Assembly: GCA_944325865.1 (NCBI GenBank)
Contig: CALVBS010000003.1
Location: 11,223 to 75,222 of the forward strand
Direction: 5' to 3'
Length of the DNA stretch: 64,000 nt
From: Candidatus Gastranaerophilales bacterium
GTDB lineage: Bacteria > Cyanobacteriota > Vampirovibrionia > Gastranaerophilales > Gastranaerophilaceae
Shown here piece after piece: positions 30,563 to 48,987 of the stretch; the stretch's first letter is position 1; each line of letters begins with the position of its first letter. Both the position numbers and the translations under genes were made by a program. The notes beneath the pieces were generated by a model. It saw only the letters and a program-made list of their open reading frames with translations. It was not told the origin of the DNA and searched no databases.

Positions 30563-31318
30563 TTAAAATCTTCTTACGTAATAATTGTTATCACTTTTTA
30601 ACTGGATTTTTATTTTATTCAAATCATCGTCCTGAAAATTAAGTGTTAATATTCGGGCAGTTTTTTCACGTATGGTGTAGTCGTTAATTTCTTTTGTAGC
30701 AAGGAGAATTGGTTTTAATTCAGAAAATTTGATTTTATCTGCAAAGTCATAGAGTGTTTCCAGACACCAGTAGAGTTTAAAAACTTCTTTGTTAACTTTA
30801 TATTTACCGTCCTGCAGATCAAAATCTTTTATGATATCAATTAGTGTCCATATTTTTTGTATAAGCTTATTGGTGTAATATTTTGAGAAATCTTCTGAAT
30901 CTTTCATATTAGCTACTGCATTAATGATATTTCTGCAGATATTTCCGTTTATATCAATAATTGCCTCAAGAAAAATATCATATGCATTTATATTCTGAAA
31001 GTAATGAAGTGTTTGTGGATTGCACATAAATTCATTTATCCTCAAAGAGACGGCTTCTCTGATTTTACCGTCTTGTCCTGTAAGGTTAGCAAGAAAGATC
31101 CGGGCCTGTTCTTCGGATTCAACTGTTTTAATTCTAAGTGCTGCAATTTGTTTTTGAGGAATATTGCCGTTTTTCAGTAATTCATAGAGTTCGGCATCAG
31201 AAAAATCTTTTGAAGCAAGCTCAAGTGCCTGTTTAAAATTTTCCTCGTGAGAATTAAAATATGAATTATCATTATTGTTTATACTTTTGTTCATAGAGTC
31301 TGATATATAATTATTCAA
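30563..31318 (-). CDS. Hypothetical HEAT-repeat-like protein
   Basis: 251-aa helical ORF. QKQIAALRIKTV...GKIREAVSLRINEF resembles HEAT repeats. Confidence 0.55.
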   Translation of the reverse strand: MNNYISDSMNKSINNNDNSYFNSHEENFKQALELASKDFSDAELYELLKNGNIPQKQIAALRIKTVESEEQARIFLANLTGQDGKIREAVSLRINEFMCNPQTLHYFQNINAYDIFLEAIIDINGNICRNIINAVANMKDSEDFSKYYTNKLIQKIWTLIDIIKDFDLQDGKYKVNKEVFKLYWCLETLYDFADKIKFSELKPILLATKEINDYTIREKTARILTLNFQDDDLNKIKIQLKSDNNYYVRRF

Positions 31319-31436
31319 ATTTAATTACTGTGGTTTCATATATCTATAATATAGCATAAAGTATAATGAAAATTTGACTTTCGCGGCTTTTAATGTATTA
31401 TATCGATAGAAGGAACTTTTGTGTGAGGAAATACAA

Positions 31437-31610
31437 ATGCAAGATTTGATAAAATTTTTAAAAGAAATATTTATGTTTAAAGGGGACGATACAAAAAAGA
31501 TTGGATTGTGCCAATTTAAGACTACACAGCCTGTAGAGAAAAAAGCTGCAAAGACAATTAAACCGGCAAGTGAAGTCAAACTGTCAGATCTTATGAGAAG
31601 AAGCTACTAA
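31437..31610 (+). CDS. Small hypothetical protein
   Basis: 57 aa from ATG31437 (GAGGAAA SD); the track starts at GTG31419. No similarity recognised. Confidence 0.4.
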   Translation: MQDLIKFLKEIFMFKGDDTKKIGLCQFKTTQPVEKKAAKTIKPASEVKLSDLMRRSY

Positions 31611-31699
31611 TCCCTTGAAATTTCTTTTGACATCTTTTATAATAAAGAATGTGGAGAATATTATAGGGAGATTGAATATGCTAAAATTCAACTGTAGTA

Positions 31700-32407
31700 A
31701 TGCTTTCGGGGGGGGGGGCAAGTAATCTAAGCTCTCCGCTTAAGGCTTTTGGTAGTGTCCTTAAAAAAACAGGTTTTACATTAGCAGAAGTACTGATTAC
31801 GCTGGGTATAATCGGTGTGGTTGCTGCAATGACGCTGCCTACAGTAATAACAAATGTACAGAAAAAAGTTGTAGAAAACCAGTTAAAAGTATTTAATACA
31901 ACCATAAACAATGCATTCAGAATGGCACAGGCAGAGCACGGCGGTAGATTTGATGACTGGATACCTAGTTATCACTATCTTTCTTTTACTGAAATTCGAG
32001 AGTGGCTTGAGAAATACTTATTTCCATATATAAAATATTCAGATGTGAGTGATTGCCGTGGTGAAGATATGGTAGGTGACAATACTTTTATTCAGGAAGG
32101 AATCTGCTTTCATATGGCAAACGGAGCTTTAATATGGATACATATTAATGATGATGGCGGAGATTTAATTTATTATGTAAATGGAAAAATACAATCAAAT
32201 CCAAGAAACAGGTTTGGCTTTCAGTTTGCAAAAACCAATAAAAAGAGTGAATTTGTGGAGCCATATGTATTTAACTGGAATGGAAATGAATCAAGTTTAA
32301 AAACTGATGGAACATGGGGCTGCTATAAAGGCTGTACAAACTGTGCTTACTGCACCAAATTAATCCAGCTTAATAACTGGGAAATTCCTGATGATTATCC
32401 GTGGTAG
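31700..32407 (+). CDS. Prepilin-type N-terminal cleavage/methylation domain protein (pseudopilin-like), probably phase-variable
   Basis: KKTG|FTLAEVLITLGIIGVVAAMTLP class III signal. C-terminal Cys-rich ...LIQLNNWEIPDDYPW. In frame from ATG31700 with 11 G. An SD-equipped ATG31678 is one frame off. Confidence 0.8.
   Translation: MLSGGGASNLSSPLKAFGSVLKKTGFTLAEVLITLGIIGVVAAMTLPTVITNVQKKVVENQLKVFNTTINNAFRMAQAEHGGRFDDWIPSYHYLSFTEIREWLEKYLFPYIKYSDVSDCRGEDMVGDNTFIQEGICFHMANGALIWIHINDDGGDLIYYVNGKIQSNPRNRFGFQFAKTNKKSEFVEPYVFNWNGNESSLKTDGTWGCYKGCTNCAYCTKLIQLNNWEIPDDYPW
31708..31718 (+). repeat. Homopolymeric G11 tract inside the leader-coding region of a prepilin-type gene
   Basis: Counted directly: ...tgctttc GGGGGGGGGGG caagtaat... 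Confidence 0.95.
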
Positions 32408-32986
32408 CTAGTATTCAATACCTTTTCTGGCAACAATTCCGGTATCCCAGTAATGTTTTACCGGTTTTATTTCTGATACAAGATGGGCAATATCTATAAT
32501 TTCCTGTCTTGCATTCCTGCCGGTAAGCACAATTTCCATATCTTCAGGTTTGCTTTTCAATACGGCAATCATTTCTTGTAAGTCAATAAAACCCATATCT
32601 ATTGCAATGTTTGCCTCGTCAAGAATTATAAGATTATATTCATCATTCTTGATAGCTTTTTTAGCAAGCTCCCATCCTTCTTTTACTATATTTTCATCAT
32701 TTTCTGTTTTGTTGTTTTGATAGACTATTTTGTCTGAGCCGGCCTGTATAATTGTAAGGTTTCTTGCAATTTCCGGAGAAAGATTCCTGAATGAATTTAA
32801 TTCCCCATAGTCGTCTCCGCCTTTCATAAACATGATGATTAAAACTTTCCAGCATCGCCCAAGAGCACGCATAGCAAGTCCGAGAGACGCAGTAGTTTTC
32901 CCTTTGCCGTCTCCGGTATAAACCTGAATGTATCCGTGTTTCGCCCAATTTGGATTTATTAAGTTGTTTTCACATTTGTCCATCAT
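32408..32986 (-). CDS. cobO: Cob(I)alamin adenosyltransferase (CobO/BtuR type), copy 2
   Basis: 192 aa. GYIQVYTGDGKGKTTASLGLAMRALGRCWKVLIIMFMKGG. Paralog of 23536..24069. Confidence 0.9.
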   Translation of the reverse strand: MMDKCENNLINPNWAKHGYIQVYTGDGKGKTTASLGLAMRALGRCWKVLIIMFMKGGDDYGELNSFRNLSPEIARNLTIIQAGSDKIVYQNNKTENDENIVKEGWELAKKAIKNDEYNLIILDEANIAIDMGFIDLQEMIAVLKSKPEDMEIVLTGRNARQEIIDIAHLVSEIKPVKHYWDTGIVARKGIEY

Positions 32987-39568: not shown

Positions 39569-40324
39569 ATGAGAATGTTTGGAAAGTATGCATTTACTTT
39601 AGCCGAAGTTCTGATTACTCTCGGAATAATCGGTATTGTGGCCGCAATGACGCTTCCTTCAATAATTCAGAAACAGCAGGACAAAATTACTGTTACAAAG
39701 TTGAAAAAGATGTATAGTGTATTGTCCCAAGCATATTTGTTTGCTGTCGGTGAATACGGAACTCCTGACACCTGGGGGTTTGGAAACCGTGATACCGGTG
39801 CAGAGGATGATGAGGATACCGATTATGTAGCCGGCAATGCTTCTATCGTGAAAAATATACTTTTTAAACAGGTTAAAAATATTCACATTTGTGATAAGGC
39901 TATGGACAAAACTTCTTGCGGACTTGCTGACAGATATTATTATGAAGGCGGCTCCGAGGCAACGGAACTGTTTAGCAAAGTGTCCAGTCTTTCCATTGTT
40001 GACGGTAGCAGTATATTAGTGTTAATAAATAATGGAACTTGTGCTGATATTCGCGGGACTGACAAATATTTGAAGAATATTTGCGGATGGATTTTTGTAG
40101 ATATTAATAATGTAAAACCGCCAAATACATTAGGACGGGATTTGTTTGGTTTTTATATAACAAAATACGGTATTATACCTGAAGGTACCGCAAATGAAAC
40201 AATGTATAACATTAATACAACAATAGGACATGGTAAAACCGCATGGGTTATATTTAATGAAAACCTTGATTATCTTAAATGTCCGGGTCAGTTAAGCTGG
40301 AATGGAAAGAAAACCTGTAATTAA
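39569..40324 (+). CDS. Prepilin-type N-terminal cleavage/methylation domain protein (pseudopilin-like)
   Basis: 251 aa. MRMFGKYA|FTLAEVLITLGIIGIVAAMTLPS N-terminus. Confidence 0.8.
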   Translation: MRMFGKYAFTLAEVLITLGIIGIVAAMTLPSIIQKQQDKITVTKLKKMYSVLSQAYLFAVGEYGTPDTWGFGNRDTGAEDDEDTDYVAGNASIVKNILFKQVKNIHICDKAMDKTSCGLADRYYYEGGSEATELFSKVSSLSIVDGSSILVLINNGTCADIRGTDKYLKNICGWIFVDINNVKPPNTLGRDLFGFYITKYGIIPEGTANETMYNINTTIGHGKTAWVIFNENLDYLKCPGQLSWNGKKTCN

Positions 40325-47112: not shown

Positions 47113-48987
47113 TTAGTTCTGAATGCTGTCAGGGACAGAACCTTGCCCCCCCCCCCCATTCTGAGATGCAGGCAGGGTAAGCATTTCCCCGAGTTTATAA
47201 TCCCACTCTACCGGCTCAAAAGCTTCAAGTCCATTAAAATGATAAAATGTTATTTCACCAAAATAAATTTTATTACCAATTAAAAATAAATCAATTCTGG
47301 CATGAAGAAAATCTTTTGATAGCTTTTTTGCTACATTAAGCATTTCTTGAAAACATTCCGGTTTTGGTATTTTTTTGTTACTAACATCATAATGTTGTTT
47401 AAATGGAAGTAAATTAAAATCTAAATCATAAAAATTGAATTTTAAGTCTTTATGCCTGTCAATTCCCACAAACAAAAAGCTCGGATTTCCATTGTTGCAA
47501 AATATTTTATAATCCAATAAGTTCCCGTCTATTTGCTCAATATATTTTTCAGCAATAATTTTAGGCTGAATATTCTTATAACACCATTCAAACCCGAAAT
47601 AGTAATGATTAGAATGCGGCTTCAACCATTCTTTTAATTTAGCTTTAGCTTCTTTAATATCAAGTTTTGATTTATCTTTAACAATAATATTCTGCCCGCT
47701 GCCCCAGTTAACTTTTAGTACAAATTGCTCCGGAAGTTTGTCAAAATCAATTTCGTCAGGGGAATCCCAGACGCCTAAAAGCGGGATTAAGTATTCTTCC
47801 CCGATTTTTTCTTTGACATAATCTCTGACAAGATATTTATCAGCACATTTGGTCAAAAGCGGGTCTTCGTTATAAAGTTTGAGCCATTGAAGTTTTTCGT
47901 TGAAACTTTTCGGATTATCAATATTTGGTTTATACCCGACAGCCTGCTCAAACTGGTGCTCAATAATATATTTTTTATCATCGAGTGAAAGATTCGGATC
48001 GTATTTTCTTGCTAAAAGTTTTTCAAGTTTAGATTTCTTGTGGATTTTGATTTTCACTCCAGCAAGCGTAATAACTTTGTATTTTTTGAATTTGTGAGTT
48101 TGATTTTTTATTGAAAATAGGTTTTGCACTAATTCTTTTCTGGCGTTTTTATTCAGCTCTTTATATAATTCCTTGAAATCATTATAAAAAGGTGTGAGTT
48201 TCGTGTATTTTTTATAGTCATCAAAATGTTTAACATTTTTGTTATTCCAAGGTTTATATGGACTTGCCCAGTGTATAATTACAGGATTATTTTTATCCTT
48301 ATGGAATTTTGATAATGCCTTTTTGTTGTCCCATACAGCAGGTCTAAAATTGAATTTTTGATTAAGATATAATATCTTATCATACAGAGTAATATTAAAA
48401 ATACACTGGTCGTAATATTTATATATGCCTCTATATTTCTTTTCTTTTTCAAATAACAAATCTTCAATATGATTTTGTCGCCATAATTTTAGATTCGCAA
48501 GCATTACTCCGGTATTACAATATTTATAATTATCCGGAATGTCTAAGCTTCTTTGATAATAGCTAGCACCTTCTTCTGTAGAAGGACAGCATGCCATATA
48601 ATAATTATCAATATTTGTGTTCCAAAGTTCGGATAAACTGTCCACAATAATTAAATCTGCATCCATAAAAATTATTTTATCAATATCTTTTAATATAGAA
48701 GATATCATCATTCGATAATTTGTAACCATAGGAATATCAGCTCTGGTATCATTTCTTTGTTCATGATGGAGTTTTTTGTTTTGTGCATAATATTTAATTT
48801 CAAAATCTTTAATGTGCTTTAATTGAGCTAATTTATTTTTACTTTCTTGAGTAATACTTCCGTCATTAATAATATGGAAAGTAAAAGTTTCGTCCGCTTT
48901 ACTATTTTTTAATATTGATGCTATTACAACAGAACAGTATTTTACATATCCATCATCAATTACAAATCCGATATCTATATTTGTCAT
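47113..48987 (-). CDS. Bifunctional GT8 glycosyltransferase / TupA-like ATP-grasp protein joined by an IFSxKN linker module
   Basis: 624 aa. The N-terminal half is GT8-like (IGFVIDDGYV, FMDADLIIV DxD, NTGVMLANL). The C-terminal half is paralogous to 45970..47019. Confidence 0.85.
   Translation of the reverse strand: MTNIDIGFVIDDGYVKYCSVVIASILKNSKADETFTFHIINDGSITQESKNKLAQLKHIKDFEIKYYAQNKKLHHEQRNDTRADIPMVTNYRMMISSILKDIDKIIFMDADLIIVDSLSELWNTNIDNYYMACCPSTEEGASYYQRSLDIPDNYKYCNTGVMLANLKLWRQNHIEDLLFEKEKKYRGIYKYYDQCIFNITLYDKILYLNQKFNFRPAVWDNKKALSKFHKDKNNPVIIHWASPYKPWNNKNVKHFDDYKKYTKLTPFYNDFKELYKELNKNARKELVQNLFSIKNQTHKFKKYKVITLAGVKIKIHKKSKLEKLLARKYDPNLSLDDKKYIIEHQFEQAVGYKPNIDNPKSFNEKLQWLKLYNEDPLLTKCADKYLVRDYVKEKIGEEYLIPLLGVWDSPDEIDFDKLPEQFVLKVNWGSGQNIIVKDKSKLDIKEAKAKLKEWLKPHSNHYYFGFEWCYKNIQPKIIAEKYIEQIDGNLLDYKIFCNNGNPSFLFVGIDRHKDLKFNFYDLDFNLLPFKQHYDVSNKKIPKPECFQEMLNVAKKLSKDFLHARIDLFLIGNKIYFGEITFYHFNGLEAFEPVEWDYKLGEMLTLPASQNGGGGQGSVPDSIQN
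47146..47157 (-). repeat. Homopolymeric C12 (G12 on the coding strand) near the 3' end of the GT8-ATP-grasp gene
   Basis: Counted directly. It encodes GGGG, 10 codons before the stop. Confidence 0.95.

Follow-up and report, generated by a model that had tools for sequence, protein, structure and literature searches.

A G tract in the leader of a pilin-like gene

The leader-coding region of a pilin-like gene in the 64 000-nt stretch of DNA analysed here (the window) contains a run of 11 Gs. Does the number of Gs decide whether the gene is translated and, if so, how many expression states does the tract allow? The preliminary description answered with a three-state switch (high, low and off) operated by two start codons in two reading frames. 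The features of the locus are listed in Table 1.

Table 1. Features of the poly-G pilin-like locus, in window coordinates
Feature	Position	Strand	Basis and details
Promoter-like TTGAAA-17 nt-TATAAT	31615..31643	+	Putative, by consensus match only (consensus scan, 11/12 matches)
SD-like AGGGAG (core GGAG)	31665..31670	+	7 nt 5′ of ATG31678
ATG31678 reading frame	31678..31725	+	At G11, 15-codon dead-end ORF MLKFNCSNAFGGGGK followed by a stop; at G10/G13, start of the 242/243-aa prepilin
Second-frame start ATG31700, without SD	31700..31702	+	In the pilin frame at G8, G11 and G14; inside the short ORF of ATG31678
Pilin-like ORF, 235 aa at G11	31700..32407	+	Leader, class III signal motif, long N-terminal helix, DUF6613 head, conserved Cys-rich C-terminus
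G11 homopolymer, length-variable element	31708..31718	+	Homopolymer scan and sequence reading
Conserved post-tract motif TAAGCTCTCC	31728..31737	+	Encodes LSSP of the leader; ~10 nt 3′ of the G run
Prepilin cleavage/methylation motif G/FTLAEV (slash, cleavage position)	31772..31792	+	GGT/TTT ACA TTA GCA GAA GTA

The G+C content of the window is 34%. A scan for G or C runs of at least six nucleotides found only the G11 tract and a C12 run at 47146-47157, which are indeed the sole long G/C homopolymers of the window, as the preliminary description had stated. The numbers expected per window, derived analytically from a first-order Markov model of the window, are 8e-4 for G runs of at least 11, 7e-5 for C runs of at least 12 and ~4.5 for runs of at least six (two seen). 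The G11 run is far beyond chance; over-represented, long enough to slip and located in the 5′ coding region, it is a repeat of the kind found in contingency loci.

The preliminary description had placed the tract between every possible start and the cleavage motif, and there is in fact no canonical in-frame start between the two. It had also assigned the pilin frame at 11 Gs to ATG31700 and at 10 or 13 Gs to ATG31678. We rebuilt the region in silico with 8 to 14 Gs and obtained the same assignment. At 11 Gs translation from ATG31678, the start with the AGGGAG motif at a 7-nt spacing, yields MLKFNCSNAFGGGGK and is terminated by TAA at 31723-31725, while ATG31700, with no purine-rich motif upstream, opens the 235-aa ORF; the latter start is in the pilin frame at G8 and G14 as well. 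At G10 and G13 the pilin frame is that of ATG31678. At G9 and G12 the open stretch contains no ATG, GTG or TTG and has no usable start, because TAG TAA lies immediately upstream of it. Start codons are thus available in two of the three frames 5′ of the repeat, the third being closed, and the three classes produced by changes in tract length are mirrored in gene calls of 242, 235 and 192 aa. The promoter-like site is identical in three orthologous loci (L001-L003). A small ORF with no family match (31419-31610, + strand) lies just 5′ of this site and appears as a 57-aa gene call in all syntenic contigs.

The encoded protein has a class III signal (KKTG/FTLAEVLITLGIIGVVAAMTLP around the cleavage site), with Gly at −1, Phe at +1 and Glu at +5 followed by ~20 hydrophobic residues. 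It was matched by Pfam N_methyl (PF07963) with 23.9 bits (cut-off 21.2), by TIGR02532 with 22.9 bits (cut-off 16.3) and by DUF6613 (PF20318) with 51.6 bits (gathering cut-off 24.3); PF20318 was found in 119 of the 120 best homologues listed. In an AF2 model built from 43 sequences (pLDDT 83.6) residues 1-23 are predicted to form a disordered leader, residues 28-80 a helix of 53 residues and the remainder a beta-rich head with at least seven strands after the helix, consistent with the long-helix and beta-head organization of pilins. A Foldseek search of this model against the PDB gave no fold match at E ≤ 0.001, and the matches of a PDB sequence search cover pilin N-terminal helices only.

The neighbours of the gene are housekeeping genes (tuf, a gene for an RHH protein, cobO and the genes for 5-formyl-THF cyclo-ligase and clpP). 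No pilus-assembly or prepilin-peptidase genes were found among the ~35 of 56 window ORFs scanned against Pfam; pilB, pilC, pilD and pilT were reported in a related Gastranaerophilales genome (PMC5877343). The window contains a second pilin-like gene (39569-40324, + strand) with a short ordinary leader (MRMFGKYA/FTLAEV...) and no homopolymer, whose N_methyl score is slightly under the Pfam cut-off.

Tract length at the orthologous locus

Contigs of public gut metagenome assemblies with the same gene order (tuf ... RHH, 243 aa, 57 aa, pilin, facing cobO) and near-identical flanks carry tracts of different lengths: G9 in L012 and L013, G10 in L001 and L026, G11 in L002, L003 and L008, and G12 in L011. 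The length among related strains, which the preliminary description had named as a check on phase variation, is therefore variable. L003 (G11) and L026 (G10) are both SPAdes assemblies from one study; the identical downstream sequence of 192 aa is shared by L011 to L013, with tracts that differ by 3 nt. One of the syntenic contigs came from a human gut metagenome. The NCBI name for members of the same 90% clusters is ‘Candidatus Scatousia excrementipullorum’; NCBI lists Scatousia as incertae sedis, and we take it to belong to Gastranaerophilales (Vampirovibrionia) in GTDB.

Scanning DNA for the module pattern (GGGGGGGCA N3-6 AATYTAAGCTCTCCGCTT) gave one match in genome contigs and one in metagenome contigs (L007 and L008), and the census of tract lengths was made by exact-protein look-ups. 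Products of 235 aa (G11), beginning with MLSGGGAS, were found on ~176 contigs and products of 242 aa (G10), beginning with MLKFNCSNAFGGG or MLKFNCSNAFGGGAS, on ~17. Calls of 192 aa from an internal Met correspond to G9 or G12, and at least three contigs have these lengths at the window-type leader. Such a distribution is unlike that expected for free, unselected switching, with the reservation that the contigs are not proven to be independent samples and that short-read homopolymer lengths carry some risk of error. The G10 state with the ATG31678 start is represented by L001 and L026 and by proteins P0001, P0008, P0132, P0137, P0158 and P0159.

In at least six allele groups an identical mature sequence of 192 aa occurs in more than one frame state. 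One group includes P0152 (G11), P0159 (G10) and P0156 (both G9 and G12); further pairs with the same mature sequence are P0008 (G10, 8 contigs) versus P0153 (G11, 5 contigs) and P0001 versus P0122. This recurrence argues for independent tract changes and not for a single inherited difference. All of the contigs that carry the exact window allele, at least 37, have G11, so the tract is stable at the consensus level in the window lineage. Look-ups of the exact window allele with G7, G8, G10, G13 or G14, or in truncated form, as well as of the L004 allele with G7, G10 or G13, returned nothing from a collection of 15 billion proteins; the polymorphism is therefore seen between very close alleles and not on an identical full-length allele. 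Taken as a whole, the tract is real, non-random and length-polymorphic.

Alleles such as P0144 (MLSGEGAS) and P0190 (MLSGRGAS), whose tracts are interrupted and hence stabilized, keep the frame of ATG31700, an observation that gene calling biases. At the same syntenic locus L009 (1330-1390) and L010 have another pre-tract leader, ATGCAAAATGCAGATATAGTAAGGGTTTCC, with an out-of-frame G9. The pre-tract segment itself is thus polymorphic, while the tract and the post-tract motif are kept.

A leader module at other loci and in other species

A survey of other pilin-like genes for similar tracts, suggested in the preliminary description, revealed the same module (SD, ATG, ~10 codons, poly-G and TAAGCTCTCC) upstream of DUF6613 pilins at three other loci, including loci of species with 44-65% identical pilins; all frame states occur there. 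The instances are locus 2 (L004, L005, L024 and L025, G11), L006 (G10), L007 (G8, in a MAG of Ca. Scatousia excrementipullorum), L014-L019 (G10), L020 (G10) and L021 (G8). Equivalent modules have AAGGAGAG in the SD position. In the distant relatives (L014-L021), with pilins 44-65% identical and at other genomic sites, the SD and ATG are followed by 8-12 codons and by G8-G10. Across 93 kb of related loci, G/C runs of at least seven nucleotides occur nowhere but in these leader tracts.

Locus 2, situated downstream of lspA and rluD, consists of AAAGGAGAG, ATGGTGAAATTTAGTCATAGAGACGCTTTC, G11 and CAAGTAATCTAAGCTCTCC and was seen in contigs from three studies. The tract has 11 Gs in all four sequenced examples (positions 1380-1390 in L004), out of frame with the sole ATG; there is no start in the G11 frame, and the downstream ORF of 229 codons is intact. 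The gene calls at this locus are 192-aa proteins, on at least 42 contigs, and the leader is in frame only rarely (P0227, and P0223 with an interrupted tract). Three more loci were counted by frame state. At the P0064 locus, G11 (with a second-frame TTG) occurs on 45 contigs, G10 on 20 and G13 on two, and there are 20 truncated calls. The P0073 locus is off on 32 contigs and on in seven, the P0020 locus off on 10 and on in two.

The second start is missing from the leader of the paralogous locus (MVKFSHRDAF), which has GACGCTTTC in place of AATGCTTTC, and from the MQNADIVRVS leader. In the MKNVVQTGFC and MSKLNIDTNFSQ leaders it takes the form of a TTG. The second-frame start is neither beyond chance nor conserved across modules. 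Some homologues have ordinary short leaders (MKKKA/FTLAEV and MSLKKTG/FTLAEV), so the module is an add-on, dispensable for the pilin itself.

The post-tract motif TAAGCTCTCC is kept at the DNA level in window-type modules. Its distant variants differ by one substitution each (TTAGCTCTCC in L014 and TAAGCTCTCT in L020), and L021 retains AAAGCT only. The CTCTCC within the motif is the exact reverse complement of the SD GGAGAG of the modules and could pair with the G run as well. A hairpin sequestering the SD or joining poly-G to CUCUCC received no significant support (window fold z-score −0.48). RNAalifold joined the G run to GCUCUCC by seven pairs and showed no covariation, and an Rfam search of 31000-32600 gave no match.

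In L006 (3075-3560) and L007 (4080-4379) a GC-richer insertion of ~500 bp, composed of repeat elements, lies between the poly-G module and the pilin. The insertion translates as HPELVSG..., TPHPSPxPLRERENQ... and KGGGTNVPEG and supplies its own SD and GTG start (MPEGFKKRKA/AFTLAEV); long N-terminal extensions of many DUF6613 calls are translated repeat elements. We considered the ‘KGGGT(N/E)VPEG’ repeats of long homologues as further G tracts and rejected them, their DNA being GGGAGGTGGCACG, a part of the repeat-element insertion.

The C12 tract

The preliminary description regarded the C12 run (G12 on the − strand) as a companion of the pilin tract in a second surface-structure gene. This part of the proposal found no support. 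The run is located in ORF 47113-48987, encoding a GT8 and TupA-like ATP-grasp fusion protein, nine codons before the stop and past the final domain match (residue 603 of 624); a frameshift there would alter the C-terminal tail only. The exact G12 protein was found on at least 23 contigs, with G12 in all, and L022 and L023 both have G12. A terminator hairpin follows the tract of this ORF. The sequence CAAGG, which occurs after the C12 tract, likewise comes after the tract in some pilin modules.

Proposed switch and alternative explanations

The G tract probably acts as a contingency switch of the slipped-strand (simple-sequence-repeat) kind, placed within the leader-coding part of a type IV pilin-like gene. 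Slippage during replication would change the number of Gs and so decide which start, if any, matches the pilin frame. With 10 or 13 Gs the SD-equipped ATG31678 would direct synthesis of a prepilin of 242 or 243 aa with a 32-residue leader; this would be the main ON state, and its arrangement is common to all related modules. With 9 or 12 Gs no start would be in frame and the gene would be OFF. With 11 Gs, the state of the window, the SD-less ATG31700 alone would be in frame and the output would probably be low or nil, because this codon lies inside the short ORF translated from ATG31678 in another frame. On this reading the tract would change length often and reversibly within one population, the two productive frames would differ in expression, and a prepilin peptidase would process the long leader.

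How much of the three-state proposal survives? Its frame logic does, since the three classes exist and all occur in nature; the second start as a selected feature does not, as it falls within chance and is absent from some modules. Since 11 Gs is also the most frequent length at the paralogous locus, where that number clearly does not fit the frame, the gene in the window is probably in a low or an off state and not in a tuned intermediate one. That G11 is a graded intermediate by design is unproven, the ranking of ‘high’ above ‘low’ being suggested by the presence of the SD alone. Several observations nevertheless favour G11 as a true intermediate, and they are the ones that tell against the first alternative.

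The alternative that we take most seriously, as a possibility rather than as the likely case, is a binary switch in which ATG31678 is the only real start, ATG31700 is accidental and G11 is an OFF state like G9 and G12. Among 30-nt coding segments, 13% have an open ATG in a given alternative frame by chance and 28% have a start of any kind, so that the three-state design may be incidental. What the related modules all have in common is the SD followed by the ATG, and not the second start. The MVKFSHRDAF leader has G11 in four of four examples in spite of having no second-frame start, with truncated calls on at least 42 contigs, and ribosomes coming from ATG31678 would cross ATG31700 in another frame. 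However, initiation without an SD is normal here: the 4-mer SD core is present in 21 of the 56 window genes and missing from 35, which makes the SD a weak predictor of expression. Moreover, G11 is by far the commonest length at the window-type leader, the interrupted tracts of P0144 and P0190 retain the ATG31700 frame (with the gene-calling bias mentioned above), and at an independent locus with a second-frame TTG start (MTRISVRGGGQ) G11 is again the commonest state.

Selection in the gut that favours off or low states could explain why G11 dominates whatever its frame, as could a mutational equilibrium or leaky decoding through slippage on the G run.

Out-of-frame copies might instead be silent or decaying cassettes, kept as recombination donors in the manner of Neisseria pilS and not switched singly. 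Identical mature domains of 192 aa do occur behind different leader types (P0123 versus P0128 and P0127 versus P0138), and the L006 gene at locus 2 shares 91% identity with the locus-1 gene of the window; both facts suggest that pilin loci have exchanged leader cassettes or undergone gene conversion with one another. Off-frame states also predominate at several loci. We nevertheless think that this explanation is improbable, as every copy has the promoter-like site, SD, ATG and an intact full-length ORF with the class III signal motif, and in-frame states were seen for each leader type.

The module invites a more speculative extension of the slipped-strand switch, to which we attach little weight: a portable leader cassette (SD GGAGAG, ATG, ~10 codons, Gn and the CTCTCC motif) may have spread among paralogues and species, and its modal G11 may be decoded through slippage of RNA polymerase or of the ribosome, which would add a layer of recoding or attenuation to the mutational switch.

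That recoding could do without mutation altogether is very unlikely. Here G11 would be the working length, and reading from the SD-equipped ATG would be brought back into frame, with no change in DNA, by RNA polymerase slipping on the run or by the ribosome shifting +1. G11 is modal at three independent loci whatever its effect on the frame, at one of which it is out of frame with the sole start while the ORF of 229 codons remains intact. The G run also resembles an internal SD, and a zero-frame stop lies two codons 3′ of the tract; an internal SD and a following zero-frame stop are known stimulators of the +1 shift in prfB. A fixed signal, however, would not tolerate the G9, G10, G12 and G13 alleles that these loci commonly carry. 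The stop (AAG TAA) has no slippery site beside it, neither RNA structure nor covariation was found in the folding analyses described above, and efficient transcriptional slippage is documented mainly on A/T runs.

Finally, although poly-G is error-prone in short reads and the polymorphism is known from assemblies only, it is scarcely tenable that the length differences are sequencing or assembly errors in a tract with no regulatory meaning, since the lengths repeat on many contigs (G10 on eight for P0008 and G11 on 37 for P0135; G10 on 20 and G11 on 45 at the other locus), differ by up to 3 nt, differ between assemblies made by the same assembler in the same study (L003 versus L026) and belong to long G runs that, over the more than 150 kb covered, are confined to this single position in the gene.

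Relation to known systems

One of the closest parallels to the slipped-strand switch proposed here is H. influenzae licA (lic1), where starts in two of the three frames lie upstream of a CAAT repeat (PMC2212159). In both cases the repeat comes just after the start region, and the number of repeat units would set whether the ORF is read and from which start. The two differ in that licA has a tetranucleotide repeat and encodes a cytoplasmic choline kinase, whereas the window gene has a homopolymer and encodes a secreted pilin. The link between phenotype and genotype was established experimentally for licA; the window switch is a prediction from sequence, with a second start that is within chance.

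Among Neisseria genes, pilC and opa have genic repeat tracts, and in pilC a G/C homopolymer is linked with pilus biology (PMC5953494). As in opa and pilC, paralogous surface-protein genes each have their own 5′ coding repeat and would be switched independently. The present case belongs to another phylum (uncultured gut Gastranaerophilales-like bacteria), the pilin-like subunit itself carries the tract, in its class III prepilin leader, and the tract with its conserved flanking motif makes up a module common to several loci and species. The opa (CTTCT repeats) and pilC (poly-G/poly-C) tracts, too, lie in the part of the gene that encodes the leader or signal peptide.

There is also a resemblance to the poly-G contingency loci of Campylobacter jejuni and Helicobacter pylori, low-GC genomes in which long G/C runs are rare overall, measure G8 to G13 and are found mostly in genes for surface structures. 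The window, in contrast, shows two tracts in 64 kb, of which C12 can alter a C-terminal tail only. With type IV pilins and T2SS pseudopilins the product shares the G/F-x-x-x-E motif, the hydrophobic N-terminal helix and the globular head. It differs from them in its leader, which at 25 or 32 residues is long for a type IVa-like sequence, in a DUF6613 head with no fold match in the PDB and in having no assembly genes among the neighbours scanned.

We found no literature linking Melainabacteria/Gastranaerophilales or DUF6613 to homopolymeric tracts or phase variation. Most likely the switch is of a known type, slipped-strand phase variation, with no earlier report found for this lineage.

A warning for annotation is that many DUF6613 pilin calls, both those cut short to 192 aa and those with an N-terminal extension, are artefacts of the tract state. 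Gastranaerophilales-like bacteria are non-photosynthetic relatives of cyanobacteria, uncultured, resident in the human gut and enriched in non-industrial populations. If the proposed switch is real, tract length would be a marker of the pilus expression state that can be read as a genotype straight from metagenomes, and the independently switchable pilin-like genes would amount to bet-hedging as in mucosal pathogens, presumably against host immunity or phages.
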